This document shows positions 19,275 through 46,415 of a stretch of 64,000 nt of DNA, piece by piece. Positions within the stretch are counted from its first letter, which is position 1. Every line of letters begins with the position of its first letter. The stretch spans positions 1,920,001-1,984,000 of the forward strand of contig CAVOFT010000001.1 in NCBI GenBank assembly GCA_963695095.1, read 5' to 3'. This DNA comes from an uncultured bacterium. GTDB lineage: Bacteria > Krumholzibacteriota > Krumholzibacteriia > JACNKJ01. Position numbers and translations under genes: made by a program. The notes under the pieces are model-generated. The model was given only the letters and a program-made list of their open reading frames with translations. It was not told the DNA's origin and ran no database searches.

Positions 19275-20130
19275 GCGGGAGTGGCGCCGCGCGGGGAGGC
19301 TCTGCGCCCTCGCCCTGCTGCTCGCCCTGCTGCCTGCCACGGCCACGGCCTCGGCCTGGCCCACGCCGCCCCGCGCCGCGGCGGTCAGCCTGGGCAACCT
19401 CCGGCCGGCGGAGGCGCAGGACTATCGCTTCGCGGCCGGCTTCTACCAGGCCCTGAGCCGCGAGCTGGGCGCGGGCGACACCGGACGCCTCGACGCCGTC
19501 AGGGCGAATTTCCTTGGACGCGCCCTGCTCAGCCTCGGCGAAGGGGCCGCGGCCAACCGCCTGCTCGGCCGCCGCCGGGATCTGCCGCCCAATCTGGGTC
19601 TGCTCCTCGCGCTCACCGTCAAGCCGTCCGCCTGGAGTGCCCTCGAGCGAGAGCGCTGGCGGGCCGCCTTCCCCGCCGAGGATGCGGAATCGCTCTTCTG
19701 GCGGGCGCGCCTGGCGCAGGCGATGGGGGATACAGGCGGGGCGCGGCAGGGTCTCGCCGAGCTGCTGCGCCGGGAGCCGGGCTCCGTCTTCGCGCCGGCA
19801 GCGCTCGAACTGCTGCAGTCCCTGCCGGCGCCGGCGCCCCTGGCGAGCGGACCGGGCGCCGTCGGCGAGCTGCGCGTGCAGTGGGGCGTCTTCCGGGAGA
19901 CGCAGGGCGCCCGCCGGCTGCTCGACGCCCTGCTGGCCTACGGTCAGCCGGCGGAACTCCTGCGCACCCTCGCCGGGGGCCAGGAGCTCTTCCGCGTCTG
20001 CTCGCCGCCCGTGGCCACGGAAGCGGAGGCGCAGGCCCTGGGCGAGCAGTTGCGCCTGCGCTACGCACTGGATTTCGTGATCTACCGGCCGGCGCGCGAC
20101 GACCATGAGGAGTCCGGAGCGCGGCGATGA
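19271..20130 (+). CDS. Secreted protein with C-terminal SPOR-like domain; start uncertain (probable indel near 19295)
   Basis: Hydrophobic signal peptide; TPR-like SLFWRARLA; VQWGVF...FRV SPOR-like pattern. TTG at 19271 overlaps the lapB stop but needs one extra G to be in frame. Confidence 0.55.
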
Positions 20131-27933: not shown

Positions 27934-29269
27934 GTGCCGGCACTCTCTACCATCGCCATCGTCGGGCGCCCCAACGTGGGCAAATCGACGCTGTTCAACC
28001 GCCTGGCGGGCCGCCGCATCGCGGTGGTGCACCCGCGCGCGGGCGTCACGCGTGACCGCCTGGTGACCCAGGTCGAGCGGGACGGCCGTCGGCTCTGGCT
28101 CGTGGACACGGGCGGCATCAGCCTCGACAAGGATGAGCTGTCCCAGCTCACCACCGAGAGCGCCAAGGCGGCCCTCGACGAGGCGGATCTGCTCTTCTTC
28201 CTCACCGACGCCCGCACGGGCGTGACTGACGAGGATCTGGCCGTGAGCAAGCTGCTCAGGCGGCGCGCGGAGAAGGTCTGGCTCCTGGTGAACAAGGTCG
28301 AGCGGGCCGAGGACGAGTACGCCGTCCACGACTTCCACCGCCTGGGCCTGGGCGAGCCCCTGGGGCTCAGCGCTCTGCACGGCGGCGCCGGGATCACGGA
28401 GCTGTGGGAGCGCCTGCTGCCCCTGGTGCCGCCCCTGCCGACGGGGGCGGCCATGGATCGGCAGCTGCGCCTGGCCGTGGTGGGGCGCCCCAACGTGGGC
28501 AAGAGCAGCCTCGTCAACGCCTTGCTGGGCGAGGAGCGGATGATCGTCAGCGAGGTGCCCGGGCACCACCCGCGACGCCGTGGACAGCCCCCTGAAGTGG
28601 CATGGGCGGGAAGCCGTGCTCATCGACACGGCGGGCCTGCGCCGCAAGGCCCGCACGAAGACGCGCCTGGACGTCTACAGCAGCCTGCGCAGCCTCTCGG
28701 CCATCGACAATGCGAACGTCGTGCTGATGGTGCTGGACGCGAGCCGGCCCTTCGCCGAGCAGGATCTGCGCATCGCGCGCCATGCCCACGAGGAGGGCAA
28801 GGGCGTGCTGATCGCCGTCAACAAGTGGGACCTGCTGGAAAAGGACGACAGCACGCTCGGCGAGGTGCTGGGGCGCGTGCGCGAGGCGATGCCCTTCCTC
28901 AGCTACGCGCCGGTGCTCTTCATCTCGGCGGAGACGCGCCAGCGCATCCACAGCGTGCTGGAGACGGCCTTCCGCGTCTTCGACAAGCGCGGGCAGCGCC
29001 TGGCCACCGGGCCCCTCAATGCCTGGCTCAAGTCGGCCGTGGAACGGCGACCGCCCCGCTACAACGAGGGCGGCACCGGCCGCTTCTACTACATGACCCA
29101 GACGGGAACCGCCCCGCCCAGCTTCACGCTCTTCGTGAACAAGCCCGAGTGGGTGCATTCCACCTACAGGCGTTACCTGATCAACCAGCTGCGCGTGCAC
29201 TTCGACTTCGAGGGCAGCCCGGTGCGCCTCAACCTCAAGGCGCGCAGCCGCCGGGAACAGCCCACATGA
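27934..29269 (+). CDS. der: Ribosome biogenesis GTPase Der/EngA; apparent 1-nt insertion near 28561
   Basis: Two GRPNVGKS P-loops, DTGG/DTAG, NKWD; frame break inside PGTTRD. Confidence 0.95.
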
Positions 29270-29874
29270 GCGCGCTGCTGCTCGTCGGCGCCTACTTGCT
29301 CGGCGGCATTCCCTTCGGCTACCTGGCCGGCCGCCTGGTGGCGGGCGTCGACCTCAGGCAGGTGGGCAGCGGCAATCTCGGCGCGACGAATGCCATCCGC
29401 CAGCTCGGCTGGGGCTGGGGCGCCACGGTGTTCGGCCTCGATCTCCTCAAGGGCTGGGTGGCCGTGGCCCTCGCCCAGCGCTACGGCGCGAGCGCCGGCG
29501 CCTGGCTGCCCGTGGCAGCCGGCCTGGCGGCCATCCTCGGCCACAGCTTCACGCCCTACCTGGGCGGCAGGGGCGGCAAGGGCGTGGCGACCAGCGCCGG
29601 CGTCTTCCTGCGCCTGGCGCCCGTCCCCACCGGGCTCGCGCTGCTCTGCTTCCTGGCCGTGATGCTCCTCTTCCGCATCGTCTCCCTGTCCAGCCTCGCG
29701 GCGACGACGGCCCTGCCGCTCCTGCTCGTCTGGCGCCAGCCGGACCAGCCCCTGCTCCTGGGCTTCGCCCTGCTGATTGCCCTGTTCATCTGGATTCGCC
29801 ACCGCGGCAATCTCCGCCGGCTCCTGCGCGGCGAGGAGCCCCGCCTGGGCGGCCCAACCCGGGGAGGCACCTGA
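29266..29874 (+). CDS. plsY: Glycerol-3-phosphate acyltransferase PlsY
   Basis: GSGNLGATN, DLLKG, GGKGVAT, HRGNLRRL. Confidence 0.95.
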   Translation: MSALLLVGAYLLGGIPFGYLAGRLVAGVDLRQVGSGNLGATNAIRQLGWGWGATVFGLDLLKGWVAVALAQRYGASAGAWLPVAAGLAAILGHSFTPYLGGRGGKGVATSAGVFLRLAPVPTGLALLCFLAVMLLFRIVSLSSLAATTALPLLLVWRQPDQPLLLGFALLIALFIWIRHRGNLRRLLRGEEPRLGGPTRGGT

Positions 29875-33878: not shown

Positions 33879-34634
33879 ATGCGCATCCTGCTCAGCAACG
33901 ACGACGGCATCCATGCGCGCGGGCTGGCCGCCCTGCGCGAGGCGCTGGCCCCGCTCTGCGAACTCTGGGTGGTGGCGCCCGCCTCCCAGCAGAGCGCGAG
34001 CAGCCACAGCCTCACCCTGCACACCATCCTGCGCCGGCACCGCATCGAGGAGCGCGTCTTCGCCGTGGACGGCACGCCGGCCGACAGCGTGCTGATGGCG
34101 ATCAACGGCCTCATGGCGGCGACGCCGCCGGATCTCGTGATCTCGGGCGTCAACCACGGGCCGAACATGGGGGAGGACGTGCACTACTCGGGCACGGTGG
34201 CGGCAGCCATCGAGGCGGCGATCCTCGGCGTGCCGGCCCTGGCCGTCTCGGTGGCGGCCTTCCGGGAGCAGATCTTCAGCGGCGCCACGCAGTTCATCGC
34301 CGACCTGGTGACCCGGCACCCCGAGGAGCTGACGCGGCCCGGCACCCTGCTCAACGTCAACGTGCCCAATCTGCCGGCGGCGGCGATCCGCGGCGTGAGC
34401 ATCACGCGGCTGGGCAGCCGCTACTACGGCGATGTCATTCTGCGCAAGGAGGACCCGCGCGGGCGCGAGTACTTCTGGATCGGCGGTGAGGAGCCCACCT
34501 GGCGCGAAGGGGACGACTCGGACTTCCACGCCGTGCACAGCCGGCAGGAGATCTCGGTCACGCCGCTGGCGCTGGATCTCACGGACCACGGCGGCCGGGC
34601 TGCGCTGGCCCACTGGGCCGAGCGCCGGCCATGA
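33879..34634 (+). CDS. surE: 5'/3'-nucleotidase SurE
   Basis: ILLSNDDG, GTPAD, SGVNHGPN, YSGTV. Confidence 0.97.
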   Translation: MRILLSNDDGIHARGLAALREALAPLCELWVVAPASQQSASSHSLTLHTILRRHRIEERVFAVDGTPADSVLMAINGLMAATPPDLVISGVNHGPNMGEDVHYSGTVAAAIEAAILGVPALAVSVAAFREQIFSGATQFIADLVTRHPEELTRPGTLLNVNVPNLPAAAIRGVSITRLGSRYYGDVILRKEDPRGREYFWIGGEEPTWREGDDSDFHAVHSRQEISVTPLALDLTDHGGRAALAHWAERRP

Positions 34635-35302
34635 GCGGGAGCGCAGGAATGGGTCGGGGCGAGCTCTTCGCCGTAGCCCGGGAGCGGATGGTCGCCCGCT
34701 TGCGGGTGCAGGGCCTGGCGGGGGAGGAGGTGCTCGGCGCCATGGCCGAGCTGCCCCGGCATCTCTTCGTGGATGCCGCGCTGGGGAGTCGAGCCTACGG
34801 CCGCGACGCCCTGCCGATCGGTTACGGGCAGACGCTCTCCCATCCCGAGATCGTGGCCCGCATGACCGAAGCCCTGCTGGTCGAGCCCGGGCAGAAGGTC
34901 CTCGAAGTCGGCACCGGCTCCGGGTACCAGGCCGCGCTCCTCGCCAGCCTGGGCCTGCGGGTGTGGACGCTCGAGCGCATCGCGGGCCTTCTGGAGCGCG
35001 CGCGCCCCCTCTGGGCCCGCCTGGGCCTGGAGACGCTGATCGTGGCTCGCCACGGCGACGGCTACCGCGGCTGGCCGGAAGCCGGCCCCTTCGGGCGCAT
35101 CATCGTGACGGCGGCGCCCCGCGCGGTGCCGACGGCCCTGCTGGGGCAGCTGGCCGAAGGGGGCCTGCTCGTCACCCCCATGGGCGGCGAATCCGATCAG
35201 CGCCTGCTGCGCTTCCGCCTGCAGGGTGAGCGGGCCTTCCGGGAGGATCTCGGCGCCTGTTCCTTCGTGCCGATGCTGAGCCGGACCCTGGGGGCCGGCT
35301 AG
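34631..35302 (+). CDS. pcm: Protein-L-isoaspartate O-methyltransferase
   Basis: PRHLFV, LPIGYGQT, VLEVGTGSGYQAA, FVPM. Confidence 0.95.
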   Translation: MSGSAGMGRGELFAVARERMVARLRVQGLAGEEVLGAMAELPRHLFVDAALGSRAYGRDALPIGYGQTLSHPEIVARMTEALLVEPGQKVLEVGTGSGYQAALLASLGLRVWTLERIAGLLERARPLWARLGLETLIVARHGDGYRGWPEAGPFGRIIVTAAPRAVPTALLGQLAEGGLLVTPMGGESDQRLLRFRLQGERAFREDLGACSFVPMLSRTLGAG

Positions 35303-35318
35303 GGGCGGGGAAAGGCCC

Positions 35319-35347
35319 TTTACACCCGTGGGGCCATGACTTATGTT
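35319..35347 (+). promoter_or_regulatory. sigma70-type promoter of tRNA-Pro(CGG), possibly also serving the sigma gene
   Basis: TTTACA-17 nt-TATGTT. Confidence 0.6.
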
Positions 35348-35358
35348 TGCAGCCGTGT

Positions 35359-35433
35359 CGGGGTGTAGCGCAGCCCGGTTAGCGCGCCTCGTTCGGGACG
35401 AGGAGGTCGGAGGTTCAAATCCTCTCACCCCGA
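35359..35433 (+). tRNA. tRNA-Pro(CGG)
   Basis: Acceptor CGGGGTG/CACCCCG; anticodon arm CCTCG-TTCGGGA-CGAGG; GGTTCAAATCC. Confidence 0.96.
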
Positions 35434-35467
35434 CCCTTTTTTTTCGCTCAGTCCCCCGGAGTACGCC

Positions 35468-36322
35468 GTGGCGGGCGATTTCGAATCCGTCTATGTCCGG
35501 GAGATTTCGAGAATCCCCGTCTTGGGCCCCGAGAAGGAGCGCGCGCTGGCCCGCCGGCTGCGCGACGGGGATGCTGATGCCCGACGGGAGCTGATCGTCA
35601 GCAACCTCCGGCTGGTGCTCAGCATCGCGCGGTCTTACGCGGGGCGCGGCGTCGGCCTGATGGATATCGTCGAAGAGGGCAACCTGGGCCTCATCCGCGC
35701 CGTGGAGAAGTTCAATCCCGATCGCGGCTTTCGCTTCTCCACCTATGCCTCCTACTGGATCAAGCAGGCCATGGCCCGCGCAGTGGCCAACCAGGGACGG
35801 ACCATCCGCATCCCTTTCCATGTCTACCAGCTCGTGAATCGCTACACGCGCTTGATGGTCCGCGAGAGCCAGGCAGCGAGCAGTTCCGATGCGGAGCTCG
35901 CGCGGCGCCTGCACTGCACCGAGCGCAAGGCCCACCTGCTGCGCAATCTCGTGATGGGGATCCTCTCGCTCGACCTGCTGATGAGCCAGGGCGCGATGAA
36001 GGAGCTCTATGCGGCGGAAGAGAACCGTGTGGGCCAGACGCCGGAAGATGTCGTTGCCCTGCAACTCGAGCACGAGCAGGTGCACCGTCTCATGGACAAG
36101 CTGTCGGAGCGCGAGCGCGCCGTCCTGCGCATTCGCTACGGCTTCGAGTCCGCTGGGGAGTTTCAAACGCTGGAGGAAACGGGGCGCGCCTTCGGGGTCA
36201 CGCGCGAGCGCGCCCGCCAGATCGAGATGAAGGCCTTGCGGAAGCTGCGCTTGCTCCTGCTGAGCGAGGAGGCAGGCAACGGCGAGGTTGGTGAACAGAG
36301 CCCCCGTAGCTCAGGCGGATAG
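35468..36322 (+). CDS. RpoS/RpoD-family sigma factor lacking region 1.1
   Basis: [56 protein letters not shown]. Confidence 0.9.
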
Positions 36323-36372
36323 AGCAGCGGTTTCCTAAACCGCGTGGGCAGGTTCGAGTCCTGCCGGGGGTA
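36300..36372 (+). tRNA. tRNA-Arg(CCT)
   Basis: Acceptor GCCCCCG/CGGGGGT; anticodon arm GCGGT-TTCCTAA-ACCGC; GGTTCGAGTCC; short 4-nt variable loop. Confidence 0.9.
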
Positions 36373-36410
36373 CCTGATCGGGATGGGTAGGGGCATGGGC
36401 GGTGGGCATG

Positions 36411-36533
36411 AAAAAACGAGGGGCTCACCGCTGAGTACGTATGACTACCCACCCTTCAGAGGCTCGTGCGGCAATCGCTTCGCTGAGATGCATGAGGATA
36501 CGGGGTCACGTACTCCCAGTAGAGCCCACTCGC
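36411..36533 (-). ncRNA. Candidate ~123-nt rod-shaped ncRNA of unknown family
   Basis: Own TTGACA-17-TAACCT promoter; end-to-end nested pairing (GCGAG/CUCGU, GGGCUC/GAGCCC, GAGUACGU/ACGUACUC and others); G-U wobbles favour the minus strand; ends in U6. Confidence 0.75.
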
Positions 36534-36539
36534 GAACGA

Positions 36540-36568
36540 AGGTTAGCAGCGAGGTCAAGGGCTGTCAA
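36540..36568 (-). promoter_or_regulatory. sigma70-type promoter of the candidate ncRNA
   Basis: TTGACA-17 nt-TAACCT with extended -10 TG; the first paired G lies 7 nt downstream. Confidence 0.8.
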
Positions 36569-36669: not shown

Positions 36670-36702
36670 AAATAAATAGGCGCCCCTCCAGGAAGGGCGC
36701 CT
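36670..36702 (-). terminator. Intrinsic terminator after the small-peptide ORF
   Basis: AGGCGCCCTTC-CTG-GAGGGGCGCCT then ATTTATTT. Confidence 0.7.
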
Positions 36703-36734
36703 TAGGTATGGAAAGCCATTGGGTCCTCTTGAAC

Positions 36735-36788
36735 TTAGTCTCGCAACCACCAGAAGAGATCCAGCAGTCCGCAGAAGAACACCAACAT
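36735..36788 (-). CDS. Candidate 17-aa hydrophobic small protein MLVFFCGLLDLFWWLRD
   Basis: AAGGAGG RBS 7 nt before ATG; upstream sigma54-type promoter; downstream terminator; too short for the ORF track. Confidence 0.6.
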   Translation of the reverse strand: MLVFFCGLLDLFWWLRD

Positions 36789-36840
36789 GGGTTCTCCTCC
36801 TTTCCTTCAGGACCTCGGCCGAGATGTCCGCATCGTGCCT

Positions 36841-36856
36841 TGCAAGGCCCGTGCCG
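36841..36856 (-). promoter_or_regulatory. sigma54 (-24/-12)-type promoter
   Basis: CGGCACG-GGCC-TTGCA versus consensus TGGCACG-N4-TTGCW, with exact GG-N10-GC spacing. Confidence 0.7.
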
Positions 36857-36875: not shown

Positions 36876-39372
36876 CTAGCTAGCGATCCGCATGAATACA
36901 AAGGAGATATCGTCGCTCTGGGCACCCTCGCCGAAGCGGGTGAGCTCGTCCAGAAGCTGGTCGGAAAGGCCTTCTAGACCTTCATCCGTGCGCGATTGCA
37001 GCCAGCCCGCCAGGCGCTCCTCGCCATAGGACTCCTGCTGGCGGTCCAGCTGATCCTCCAGCCCGTCCGAGCGCAGGAAGAGCAGGTCCCCCGGACGCAG
37101 TTGCAGCACCCCCTGCAGGTAGGACTGCCCCTGCTCCACCCCCAGCAGCTGACCGCCGCGCCGCAGGCGCTCGAGGCGCCCTTCCCGGCGGAGGAGCCAG
37201 GGCGCGGGCATGCCGGCATTGCAGTAGCGCAGAAGCCCGCTGTCGCGCTCCACCTGCCCATAGAAGAAGCCCGCGAAGGTGCCATGCCGGCGCGCCCGAT
37301 CAGCAACCAGCCGGCCGAGCGACTGGTTCATGCCGGCCAGGACCTGGGCGGGGGCGAGACCGTCGGCGGCCTGGGCGTGGAAGGCCACGGCCACGGAGGA
37401 GATCAGCATCGCCGCCGGGACGCCATGCCCCGTCGCATCGCCGAGGGCGAGACCCAGCCGGCGTTCGTCGAACTCGAGGAAGTCGTAGTAGTCCCCGCCC
37501 ACTTCGCTGCTGGTCCGCATGCGGCCCGCCAGCTCGATCCAGGGCAGGCGAGGCGTGCGGCGGGGGAGGAGGTCGAGCTGGATGCTGCGGGCCAGCTCCA
37601 TCTCGCTGCGCAAGCGCTCCTCCCGGGAGGCCAGGGCGACAAGACTCAGGTTGCGCAGGTGCAGTTCGAGCGGGGCAACCAGCCGCTGCAGGCCTTCGAT
37701 GATCTCCGCGTCGTAGAGCGCCCGGCGCCGGGAAGGACCGAGCACCAGCAGCGCCGGGCGATCGCTGTCGCCGCTGAGGCGAAGCAGCAGGGCCCAATCG
37801 TGGGCCTTGCAGTAGGGGAGGGCCTCCGGGCCCAGCAGGCTCCGCGCCCAGTAGGGGTCCCACTGCTCCGCAGCGAGGAAGCAGCGCTTGCCCAGCAGGG
37901 CCTCCTCGAGAGTGCCAGGCAGGCTGTAGCCGGCGCCAGCGTCGGGGACCGTGATGGAGGCCGGGGAACCGCCCTCGCTTACCCAGCGATCCTGGACGCG
38001 CCAGCTGCCATCGTCCTCGCCTTCCAGCCAGAGCAGCCAGGTGGATTCCGCCTCCCAGCCCAGCCGCGGCAGGAGCGCTCGGCTCAGCTCGCGCCGGCAG
38101 GTGAAGTAGCGCGGGGGCGCGAGCCAGCGCAAGCAATCCTGAAAAGGCGCTTCGCTGCCCTCGCGACTGCGGCGCAACAGGCGGCGGCGCAGGGGCACGA
38201 CCATCGGCAGCGCGATGAGCAGAGCGAGGGTGTCGAAGACGAGGTCTTCGGGAGCGCTTGCTGTCCCGGGGCGCAGCGCGTGCAGCCCGAGTCGAACGAG
38301 GAGGAAGAGGCCGATCAACAGGGCGCTCGCGATGAGGAGCCGGCGCAAACGCGCGGCGCGGTGATAGAGGGCCGGCAGGTCCGGTCCCAGGATGCCCAGG
38401 GCGAAGCTGAGCGGCAGGAGCGTGAGCGACAGGGGAATCCAATCCGCTAGCCCCAGGCGCCGTCCCGGCAGGACCTGGTGCAGTAGCTGGAAGACGACGA
38501 GGGGAAGCAGTCCGAAGAGCGCGGCGATGAGCACGAGGCGGATGCGCCGTCGCTCACGGCGATGCTTGCGCCGGAAGGCCTTGAACACGAGGACGCCGAG
38601 GCCGAGCAACAGCAGGAGGCCGCTCTGGATGGCGGCGACCTGCTGCAGTGTCCGCGCCGGGGCGGCCGTGCCCGCGATCGGAAGATCGGCGAGGATCGCC
38701 GAGGCCGACCACGAGGGCGAGCAAGAGGGGGGGCAGGTAGATCAGCAGGCGCAGGACCAGAGGCCGCGCTCGCCGCTCCGGAAAGAGGATGATGAAGTGG
38801 AGCCAGACCGCGGGCAGCAGCAGGGCGAACACGTCGGCCTTCCACTCCAGGAAGGTCGCCGCCGCACCGGGCCCCGGCCGGGGATCGAGCGCGAAGAGCG
38901 AGCCGATGAGCAGGGTGAGCAGGAAGAAGAGCCTGGCCAGGGGGTCGCGGCGACGGCCCTGCACCCAGTACCCGATGAGGAAGACGGCGATGGCCGCAAG
39001 TGTGCGCAGGCTCAGGCCGAAGCGGCGGCCGAGATCGGGCGGGCGCAGGGATAGCGTCTGCTCGAGGCGTTCGCTTCCGCGCTGCACCTCGAGGCGGATG
39101 GGGCCGGCTCGTGCGCCCGCCACCAGGGCGGCGCTGGCCTCGGCGTCCCGGCGGGGACTGTGGCCGTTGATGCGCAGGAGGCGATCGCCGGCTTGAAGCG
39201 ATGCCTGCCCTTCCCCGGCGGGCGCGTTGGGTATCACCCGCAGCTGCCTGAGGCGGAAGGGGAGCTCCGGCCCCTGCCAGCGCTCGCTGAGGCCGGCGGC
39301 GGCCAAGAGGATCAAGGCGACGAGGGCGAGGGCGGGCAGGGCGCGCCGAAGCCCCAGAAAGAACCTGGCCAT
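36876..39372 (-). CDS. Membrane PDZ-like / multi-TM / SpoIIE (PP2C) phosphatase; apparent 1-nt insertion near 38700-38730
   Basis: LQAGDRLLRING PDZ-like motif, several TM helices, VGGDYYD, GDATGHG, NAG, SDG, DDIS. Confidence 0.8.
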
Positions 39373-44467: not shown

Positions 44468-44989
44468 CTACCACTCCCCGAAGACGGCATTGAGAGCGGC
44501 ATCGACAATCTGCTCGATGGCCTTCTCCTCCGCGCGGTCGCGGGTGAGCTCGGCGCCGGCCGCACTGCCTTCGACGAAGAAGCTCTCGCTGCCGGTGAAG
44601 CGGCGATTGCTCCAGAGGGCCTCCCCCGTCGCGCTGCGCTGGAAGCTCAGCTCGAGCACGATCGTCAACTTGTACTCGTCGGCGCTGCCGGCCTCGCTGA
44701 TGGAGAAGGGCGCCTCGCTATAGCGAACGACGCTGCCGCTGAGGAGGATAGTCCTCCTGGCCGCGGGGCACCAGGCGCATGCCGCCGTCGGCTTCCAGCG
44801 CTTCGCTGAGCGCAGTCGTGGCCAGCAGTTCCAGATCCGGCTGCGCCGTGCGATTCTCGAGGAACGGCACGGCGACGCTGCCCGTCAGGGCCCGCCCGCG
44901 GCTGCTGCCGTGGTAGTAGCCGCAAGCGGTGGAGAGGAGAAGGATGAGGCCGCTCGCGCAGGCGACGCGCAGGCGCCAGGGCAGCCGTT

Positions 44990-44993
<4 letters not shown>
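44468..44993 (-). CDS. lptE: LptE-like lipoprotein; apparent 1-nt insertion near 44745
   Basis: Lipobox STA-CGYY; VAVPFLENRT; terminal W; lptE-holA synteny. Confidence 0.7.

Positions 44994-46415
<1,422 letters not shown>

Follow-up and report, generated by a model that had tools for sequence, protein, structure and literature searches.

A short double-tryptophan peptide gene beside a membrane PP2C phosphatase in Krumholzibacteriota, with copies in phages and Patescibacteria-type cells: a candidate exported peptide signal

Most known peptide pheromones come from Firmicutes, where TPR proteins or histidine kinases sense them, and in the Rap-Phr systems of Bacillus the peptide gene has an alternative-sigma promoter of its own. 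Other very small hydrophobic proteins, such as MgrB, SafA and AcrZ, exert feedback on membrane signalling or transport proteins; MgrB and SafA act on PhoQ as regulators of the cell that makes them. In streptococci, as the accessible part of one source describes, comS is a short reading frame immediately behind the gene of its receptor, and the mature pheromone consists of the C-terminal 7-8 residues with a WW motif (PMC5131902). For RRNPP systems, the available part of a second paper gives as criteria a propeptide of 10-100 aa, genes that are -60 to 400 bp apart and a receptor of 250-500 aa with TPR; it also describes secretion by Sec, or by PptAB for SHP-type propeptides, which are without a Sec signal (PMC10075063). 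Phages, according to the accessible part of a third source, carry Rap-Phr or another RRNPP receptor with its peptide and so manipulate host decisions (10.1101/2021.07.15.452460).

The locus described here lies in a 64,000-nt stretch of DNA (the window, meaning the whole stretch that was analysed) from G000, a 3.64-Mb genome of a family of Krumholzibacteriota that we call f1. Here a signalling gene is followed by a tiny unannotated ORF, whose product has a hydrophobic front and a C-terminal WW core, as in ComS/XIP-ComR (type II, double-Trp) in the accessible part of PMC5131902. Most of its host peptides lack a Sec-type basic n-region, which recalls the SHP propeptides of the SHP/Rgg pairs, described as having no Sec signal in the available part of PMC10075063. 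Unlike ComS and SHP, the peptide belongs to a non-Firmicutes host and its core ends basic or acidic; the likeness is one of layout, and no sequence homology is claimed. Of the RRNPP criteria, propeptide size (15-24 aa in 160 cassettes) and gene adjacency apply to the unit. The neighbour, in contrast to the 250-500-aa cytoplasmic TPR regulators of the ComR/Rgg type that the same source describes, is a multipass membrane PP2C protein of ~830 aa with PDZ, GAF and SpoIIE domains and no TPR. Because it departs from the RRNPP criteria in receptor size and TPR, the unit is not an RRNPP system. The order of a phosphatase gene followed by a short peptide gene, and carriage by phages, recall Bacillus Rap-Phr and arbitrium-type systems. 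However, the enzyme here is a membrane Ser/Thr PP2C, unlike the soluble TPR protein Rap, an aspartate phosphatase, and whereas phage-borne Rap-Phr comprises receptor and peptide (10.1101/2021.07.15.452460, accessible part), the parasites considered below carry the peptide without the receptor. The neighbour shares a C-terminal PP2C domain with RsbU, SiaA and SpoIIE and differs from them in an N-terminal TM-PDZ-multi-TM sensor that belongs to no Pfam family. Compared with MgrB, SafA and AcrZ, finally, the WW peptide is shorter (down to 15 aa), varies at its front while its C-terminal motif is fixed, and is also borne by external parasites.

The unit lies on the minus strand, between the 3' end of the gene for the PDZ-membrane-PP2C protein and a convergent tRNA-Arg/rpoS-like region. 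It begins with a -24/-12 promoter motif of the sigma54 type (36841..36856), followed by a 5' hairpin with a GGCC loop at the predicted transcript start (36810..36829), the palindromic core of which is retained with paired changes in 7/11 f1 loci. The Shine-Dalgarno sequence (SD; 36796..36807) ends 7 nt 5' of the ATG of ORF1 (36735..36788), which encodes the 17-aa peptide MLVFFCGLLDLFWWLRD of a family with the motif D-[LI]-[FL]-W-W-L-[RK]; in predicted folds this SD is partly sequestered (mean unpaired 0.30). A second SD (36729-36724) and a 5-codon ORF2 (36719-36702) occupy 36702..36729, and the stop of ORF2 overlaps the first base of the stem of an intrinsic terminator (36670..36702) with an 11-pair stem (36702-36678) and a U-rich tail. 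The promoter motif, the SD, the 17-codon ORF and the terminator had been recognised in a sequence-only reading of this DNA, and each was recovered at its place on the minus strand. That reading had also proposed a complete transcription unit with nothing longer to encode; its elements stand, from promoter motif to terminator, and the unit is not one of a single ORF, as ORF2 with its own SD precedes the terminator. Besides ORF2, the reading had overlooked the structured RNA downstream, the close tie to the phosphatase gene and the copies in phages and episymbionts. A surE-pcm-tRNA-Pro-rpoS-like sigma-tRNA-Arg cluster (window 33879-36374) converges on the unit, and therefore the system adjoins general-stress genes in f1. 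As for transcripts, a small share of the window stretch was present in 16 metatranscriptome runs; four runs held only contigs of a relative, which span several genes, may be DNA and are uninformative on transcription.

The expected conservation in relatives was found: in f1 loci located by DNA synteny (41 relatives searched) and not via the peptide, the ORF, its SD, the motif spacing and the terminator are conserved in 10/11 other genomes, and these ten, together with one genome each of f2 and f8, retain the SD, the start and a C-terminus D-[LI]-[FL]-W-W-L-[RK]-x-stop. Overall, the peptide is 15-24 residues long: a hydrophobic front that varies is followed by the conserved core x-D-[LI]-[FL]-W-W-L-[RK], and 0-2 further residues complete the C-terminus, the end being basic or acidic. 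A degenerate DNA pattern for this C-terminal end matched 114/208 genomes of the phylum, once in each, and the reversed pattern 1/208, and a profile built from 53 peptides gave matches in 182/208 phylum genomes and in 117/125 of the near-complete ones. The peptide is thus a single-copy gene with near-universal vertical inheritance in Krumholzibacteriota, and the family also occurs in Eisenbacteria. Among 160 cassettes (149 peptides), the core residues stay constant while all 6 Leu codons, all 6 Arg codons, both Asp codons and all three stop codons are used. By this pattern of variation ORF1 is a real gene under coding selection, with its DNA free beyond the protein.

The family appears to be new, in that it is undescribed in the searchable literature. 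Pfam gave only two weak single-member matches (E 0.034 and 0.37), and no match to a toxin, for the 20/53 members of at least 20 aa; NCBIfam gave 0 matches for the 2 peptides tested, and the PDB 0 matches at E 10. In a collection of 15 billion proteins, 9/10 members looked up were absent and the tenth was annotated as 'hypothetical protein'. No description of the peptide or of the system was found in the literature covered, which excluded subscription journals and supplements; small-protein catalogues in supplements could contain the family unnamed.

A ribosome-arrest or leader peptide, or an RNA with an incidental ORF, is a very unlikely reading of this unit, although a short ORF with a conserved C-terminus would suit the former, and the stop of ORF2 coincides with the terminator in 68/89 loci across f1, f2 and f6, a layout of the ribosome-controlled kind. 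On the one hand, this layout is pronounced where it occurs. In f1, a second SD with an ORF2 that ends on the first bases of the terminator stem is present in 11/11 loci (0.6 expected from shuffling), always with 5 codons of non-conserved sequence; f2 has it in 48/69 loci (6.0 expected), mostly with a stop-start overlap as the start, and f6 in 9/9 (0.5 expected), with 4-14 codons. It is absent from f5 (0/7), f8 (0/11), Eisenbacteria and others (0/18 with a stem) and Patescibacteria-type loci (0/6); in f5 and f8 it is the stop of ORF1 itself that lies 5-9 nt from the terminator stem. The layout is specific, because in G000 a gene stop is found at 12 nt or less from only 3/158 predicted terminators, and only 2/131 distant terminators have a comparable mini-ORF. 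As its sequence varies, ORF2 can be taken not to be a conserved product itself; in the reading that we favour below, it would park a ribosome on the terminator stem and so probably tunes termination or mRNA lifetime. On the other hand, WW does not stand at a fixed distance from the stop, with a variation of 0-2 codons, and no co-oriented gene follows the unit in f2 or f6, which argues against arrest or a leader function; a leader-attenuator of a downstream gene was rejected since such a co-oriented gene is absent in most families. An RNA role finds a weak Rfam match to the CC2171 sRNA (E 0.012; 22.8 bits against a cut-off of 75), and is contradicted by the synonymous freedom described above and by phage copies that retain the peptide in unrelated RNA contexts. 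The CC2171 identity itself was discarded, as the below-cut-off match is driven by the SD and 13 further loci gave no Rfam match. A CsrA-sponge sRNA, considered on account of several GGA motifs in the transcript, was discarded too, as synonymous changes in relatives remove the motifs and the peptide stays.

The proposal that a translated peptide is expressed from a sigma54-type promoter held up in three respects: coding-type variation, the promoter motif and rpoN. Motifs of the class.GGCACG-N4-TTGC[AT] occur 5 times in the 3.64-Mb genome, which speaks against a chance match here; in the window copy the first -24 base is C, versus T in the consensus. With patterns written after viewing the loci, and loci without a family label grouped by peptide ending, GG-N10-GC stands at a family-constant distance in 53/53 loci of f1, f4/7/9, f5, f6 and f8 (1.4 expected), and in 17/68 f2 loci, 5/26 Eisenbacteria and other loci and 0/10 Patescibacteria-type loci. 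The gene rpoN, whose presence in the genome had been put forward as a check, scores above the curated cut-off in G000 and in 118/121 genomes in all. Sigma54 activator genes are present in G000 at window 44718-46415 and in L023; the former, a receiver-sigma54 activator gene on the minus strand, lies 8 kb upstream on the same strand as the unit and is a candidate activator of the ORF1 promoter. However, sigma54 is not a fixed feature: in f2, a TCAA/TAAA...GCCGA motif, which we take to resemble FliA promoters, is found in 57/68 loci (0.7 expected), with FliA/WhiG above the cut-off in 49/49 sampled f2 genomes, and the Patescibacteria-type copies have neither a sigma54-type nor a FliA-type motif (0/10 loci). 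Since f2 is mostly FliA-type and the others are sigma54-type, the constant feature, as far as motifs tell, is a dedicated alternative-sigma promoter rather than sigma54 as such. A flagellar role of the peptide was considered and rejected: flagellin is present in f1 (11/11) and f2 (4/4) and was not found in the sampled f4, f7 and f8 genomes, which retain the peptide.

A second unit with a sigma54 motif was observed in G000 (L023 6216-6500; G000:C1:1028216-1028510, plus strand), where it is flanked by the gene of a GAF-sigma54 activator and by the ATP synthase operon. It holds 1-2 short hydrophobic ORFs with a K-T-W-W ending, and the motif is single or repeated at the ORF ends (L023, L272, L273, L277). 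A pattern for such units was positive in 5/121 genomes, with genuine units in G000, G002 and G008 (twice there) and the other 2 due to chance; it is possibly a second WW-peptide signal.

The candidate receptor is the phosphatase encoded directly upstream. In the window its gene is in two pieces on the minus strand, a 5' piece (38554..39372) with TM1, the PDZ domain (Pfam PDZ_6) and the first TM helices, and a 3' piece (36876..38609) with the remaining TM helices, GAF and PP2C/SpoIIE (E 5.5e-43). It is frameshifted between 38758 and 38444 and intact in close relatives; tblastn with the intact G002 protein aligned in two frames, 39288-38758 and 38444-36879. The frameshift is likely a sequencing or assembly error, because a Der-like GTPase gene in the window (27934-29874) has an apparent frameshift too; the phosphatase ortholog of G008 is also split. 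Intact orthologs of ~820-850 aa consist of one TM helix, PDZ, ~9 TM helices, GAF, a coil and PP2C, and an AF2 model of an f1 ortholog (pLDDT 85) has ~10 TM helices, with the PP2C domains of RssB, RsbU and SiaA as best Foldseek matches. Pfam SpoIIE scores above its cut-off in the orthologs, NCBIfam SiaA and RssB below theirs, and no TPR was detected at E 0.1 in 5/5 proteins scanned. Among 33 orthologs, the PP2C metal-site residues D625, D643 and D766 are invariant and D817/D818 are retained in at least 90%. The TM-PDZ-multi-TM sensor module matches no Pfam family and ESM Atlas names none; the Atlas clusters closest to it consist of hypothetical proteins with PDZ from Acidobacteriota, Bacillota and Chloroflexota. 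Given a cytoplasmic N-terminal end, the PDZ domain would face outwards. Our literature search found no peptide ligand for PP2C phosphatases of this class. Possible substrates are present in G000, which has 7 STAS-domain matches.

The DNA pattern test is conditioned on the motif, and we therefore ran an independent test via phosphatase orthologs. In this non-circular test, a variant peptide was present at 24/24 ortholog loci of genomes that the pattern had missed (22 follow the ortholog in the same orientation and 2 are inverted), and PDZ-less paralogs had none (0/4). The inverted cassettes, in two f4 genomes (L252, L254), converge on the phosphatase gene, from which a tRNA-like gene separates them. 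The peptide was present in 175/181 genomes with a receptor match of E 1e-140 or better versus 7/27 without one, a contrast inflated by physical linkage in incomplete assemblies. The two genes are also missing together: the ortholog is absent from a single family, f3 (best E there 1e-72 to 1e-125), and the peptide count of f3 is 0/7. The distance is ~60-200 nt in most Krumholzibacteriota loci and at most 434 nt in f7; in Eisenbacteria, linkage was found in 5/5 genomes tested, with the core motif 181-346 nt after the ortholog stop. Downstream neighbours vary while the linkage to the phosphatase stays. It is conceivable that the phosphatase merely controls expression of the peptide or is just its neighbour, and that the peptide acts on another conserved host target, such as a membrane machine, a protease or a phage receptor, and serves parasites for takeover or superinfection exclusion. 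The tie to the phosphatase is one of gene order alone, phage copies sit among early and replication genes without the receptor, and the near-invariance of the core over two phyla would fit a slowly evolving target. We nevertheless consider such a target improbable, as the linkage survives cassette inversion (2 loci), a change of promoter and inserts that reach ~430 nt, and the phosphatase ortholog and the peptide are jointly absent from f3.

A neighbouring RNA gene was examined for a relation to the unit. Downstream, also on the minus strand, a promoter of the sigma70 type (36540..36568; TTGACA and TGC-TA at constant spacing in aligned f1 loci), which a generic promoter scan had missed, heads a separate unit for a structured non-coding RNA of ~125 (125-140) nt (36411..36534; fold z -3.6). 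A long stem closes this RNA, a U-tail ends it, and its central core is invariant among 25 loci aligned from f1, f5 and f8; it matched no Rfam family. SRP RNA was rejected, as SRP is located elsewhere in the genome, and no RF00013 (6S RNA) match was obtained in the genome or for this RNA; as a guess, it is a short 6S-like RNA. A role as antitoxin was rejected for want of complementarity to the peptide mRNA, and the RNA is best taken as a neighbour unrelated to the peptide, whose membership in the candidate system is not supported.

This bears on the possibility of a type I toxin checked by antisense RNA. Type I toxin-antitoxin systems are characterised, in the accessible parts of two sources, by an antisense or base-pairing RNA antitoxin (PMC3919570, PMC6563280). 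The WW peptide shares its small size, its hydrophobicity and a partly occluded SD with Ibs, TisB and Ldr/Fst, f1, f5 and f8 have a conserved RNA at 170-320 nt downstream, and 4/7 Patescibacteria-type copies have 5'/3' complementarity of 8-12 nt. However, pairing between the neighbouring RNA and the mRNA is no better than in shuffles (27 loci, z -2.6 to +1.3, with perfect matches of at most 6-8 nt), only 12/159 loci show a sigma70-like promoter in antisense, no Pfam toxin matched, and conservation is concentrated in the motif and not in overall hydrophobicity. In addition, unlike these toxins, the peptide is a single-copy, near-core gene, inherited vertically almost throughout the phylum, and no antisense RNA was found. 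Because neither the neighbouring RNA nor antisense promoter sites at the loci provided an antitoxin, the type I reading is unsupported, and we regard it as highly improbable. The sequence-only reading had offered two branches, a tightly switched signalling peptide or regulator of membrane proteins and an Ibs-like toxin; the former fits the evidence and the latter falls, given the lack of an antisense partner, the single copy and the near-universal presence.

Copies outside the host phyla are numerous. Two scans of viral contigs yielded 29 + 22 = 51 loci (1 in the reversed control versus 29), and 37 distinct ORFs with an SD and a start were found on 33/51 of these, of which a stricter filter left 26. 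Genes for terminase, endolysin, Gam, RusA, SSB and thymidylate synthase neighbour the phage copies, and 17/23 proteins scanned match PHROGs. The viral peptide endings span those of f1, f2/f6, f4, f5, f8 and Eisenbacteria; one phage locus (L302) has four different versions in tandem, and L325 and L326 have two each. In none of the parasite loci examined is the phosphatase adjacent, and tblastn against cultured-phage records gave no match. A peptide match is also present in 10/39 genomes of a Patescibacteria-type family, which argues against mis-binning. Four small low-GC genomes of this family (G208, G209, G210, G212; 1.0-1.1 Mb), labelled Patescibacteria-group in three cases and Gammaproteobacteria in one, carry f2-like peptides directly after a receiver-only gene, in two of them as tandem copies. 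Five small genomes with the peptide lack a receptor, the best match being a 7TM-GAF histidine kinase (E 8e-35). Since Patescibacteria-type genomes thus have their own 7TM-GAF kinase and a receiver-only gene next to the peptide, these cells might use the peptide themselves. The hosts of the phages and of the Patescibacteria-type cells are those that we infer.

At L228-L230 and L232 the peptide lies in a variable, partly higher-GC island beside a shared low-GC backbone, the genes of which were named Fur/ZIP, SpoU-like and PfkB-like from reading the sequence. The island also holds receiver-only genes and genes for predicted exported proteins, and it may be a host-derived manipulation kit. The complementarity of 8-12 nt mentioned above is perfect and joins an upstream G-run to a C-run in the terminator loop (L146, L136, L212, L224; 4/7 Patescibacteria-type loci), compared with 5-8 nt in most other cassettes. 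An archaeal (Woesearchaeota) record (L231; G211:C12, ~19620-19684) has a 28-codon ORF between lysS and a convergent gene, with a basic-hydrophobic front and an f1-type core and no clear SD; it is a single and weaker case. Among the matches listed in a metagenome scan, 109 were distinct and 20 of these had no qualifying ORF, leaving at least 89 distinct ORFs, of which at least 36 lie beside a receptor, at least 19 have none within 600 nt or more and at least 34 are on short flanks. Two or three tandem versions, with no receptor in view, occur on the metagenome contigs L355, L409 and L414. The GTDB-wide and metagenome scans required Phe in the core, so that the taxonomic range is a lower bound; in the GTDB-wide scan, matches without a start or SD, or antisense to long genes, were set aside as chance, including some in Bacteroidetes, Bryobacterales and Gammaproteobacteria.

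On which side of the membrane the peptide would act is the point at which two readings of the linkage part. A peptide that stays in the membrane of its producer could bind the TM bundle of the phosphatase as feedback, with phages expressing it inside the infected cell. This cell-autonomous regulation, which we consider rather unlikely though it deserves attention, accounts for the same linkage and co-loss. In length, acidic N-end and basic C-end, the versions of 21-22 residues resemble a single TM helix in N-out orientation. A basic n-region of the Sec type is missing from most host peptides, many of which combine an acidic N-terminus with a basic C-terminus. By the positive-inside rule, an acidic N-end and a basic C-end place the core on the cytoplasmic side. 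Outside PP2C, receptor conservation is highest in TM2-TM8 (mean 0.45-0.61, versus 0.43 in PDZ), and no linked exporter or protease gene was apparent. Conserved columns of the receptor include R142, D144, F150, E177 and F194 (numbered in the L216 ortholog). However, the length and sequence of the front are free, and in the 15-aa versions of f5 and f8 it is charged and only 6-7 residues long, too short for a TM helix; a full TM helix is therefore not required, and an obligate single TM helix was rejected. Furthermore, Patescibacteria-type cells, which live outside their hosts according to the available part of PMC11623550, have the peptide without the receptor, and leaders like those of some phage versions would release the core outside.

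The evidence from leaders is as follows. Fronts of at least 18 residues occur in 12/66 non-host peptides versus 2/140 receptor-adjacent ones, counts in which kin are not independent and starts were chosen by SD score. A rough signal-peptide heuristic of our own, which is not SignalP and depends on the choice of start, was positive for 3/37 viral ORFs and 1/140 host peptides, the latter probably with a mis-chosen start. The phage ORFs L307 and L299 have a basic n-region, a hydrophobic stretch and Ala-x-Ala 1 and 9 residues before the conserved Asp; in L307 (1916-2029, plus strand), where it is one residue before, cleavage, if it takes place, would release a nine-residue core outside the cytoplasm. 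An AF2 model of a 37-aa phage member, one helix, is uninformative.

These signal-like phage leaders, together with carriage by cells living outside their hosts, lead us to favour an exported, ComS/SHP-like peptide signal for the neighbouring membrane phosphatase that is imitated by parasites, to which we give an even chance of being correct. The C-terminal core would be the active part; it would leave the cytoplasm, after or without trimming, and bind the outward-facing PDZ/TM module of the phosphatase. Binding would switch the enzyme on or off towards a STAS anti-anti-sigma factor, as in partner switching of the RsbU/SiaA type. The alternative-sigma promoter (sigma54, or FliA-type in f2) would restrict production to certain conditions, and an autoinduction loop could arise through it. 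To push the switch of their host, phages and Patescibacteria-type cells would make the same peptide, in many cases the variant of a single host family and in some cases more than one variant. As the core is nearly identical across two phyla, the signal would be broad rather than kin-specific. Several points weigh against an exported signal. We infer binding, export, processing and expression from sequence; most host peptides look N-out and C-in and have no apparent linked exporter; and a C-terminus that is basic or acidic, with 0-2 additional residues, is unlike that of typical PDZ ligands.

The wider picture, in which cell-to-cell peptide signalling exists outside Firmicutes with a membrane PDZ-multipass-GAF-PP2C receptor, and in which dozens of unrelated phages, a Patescibacteria-type family and perhaps a DPANN archaeon mimic the pheromone while carrying no receptor, has in our estimate somewhat less than an even chance. 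If it is true, the peptide version of a parasite marks which uncultured host family is exploited, and the motif would be a sequence tag for linking parasites to hosts. The pairing of a near-core peptide with a membrane PP2C, seen in two uncultured phyla, would mean an additional class of receptor, and the PDZ-multipass sensor module, so far a widespread orphan, would have its first ligand. The core can be synthesised and the receptor expressed in a laboratory strain, which makes the proposal testable without culturing the host. The repeated capture of the motif by phages and ultrasmall episymbionts would mean that the switch matters to parasites. Even if the peptide is a regulator of its own cell, it would represent a new small-protein family missed by gene callers.
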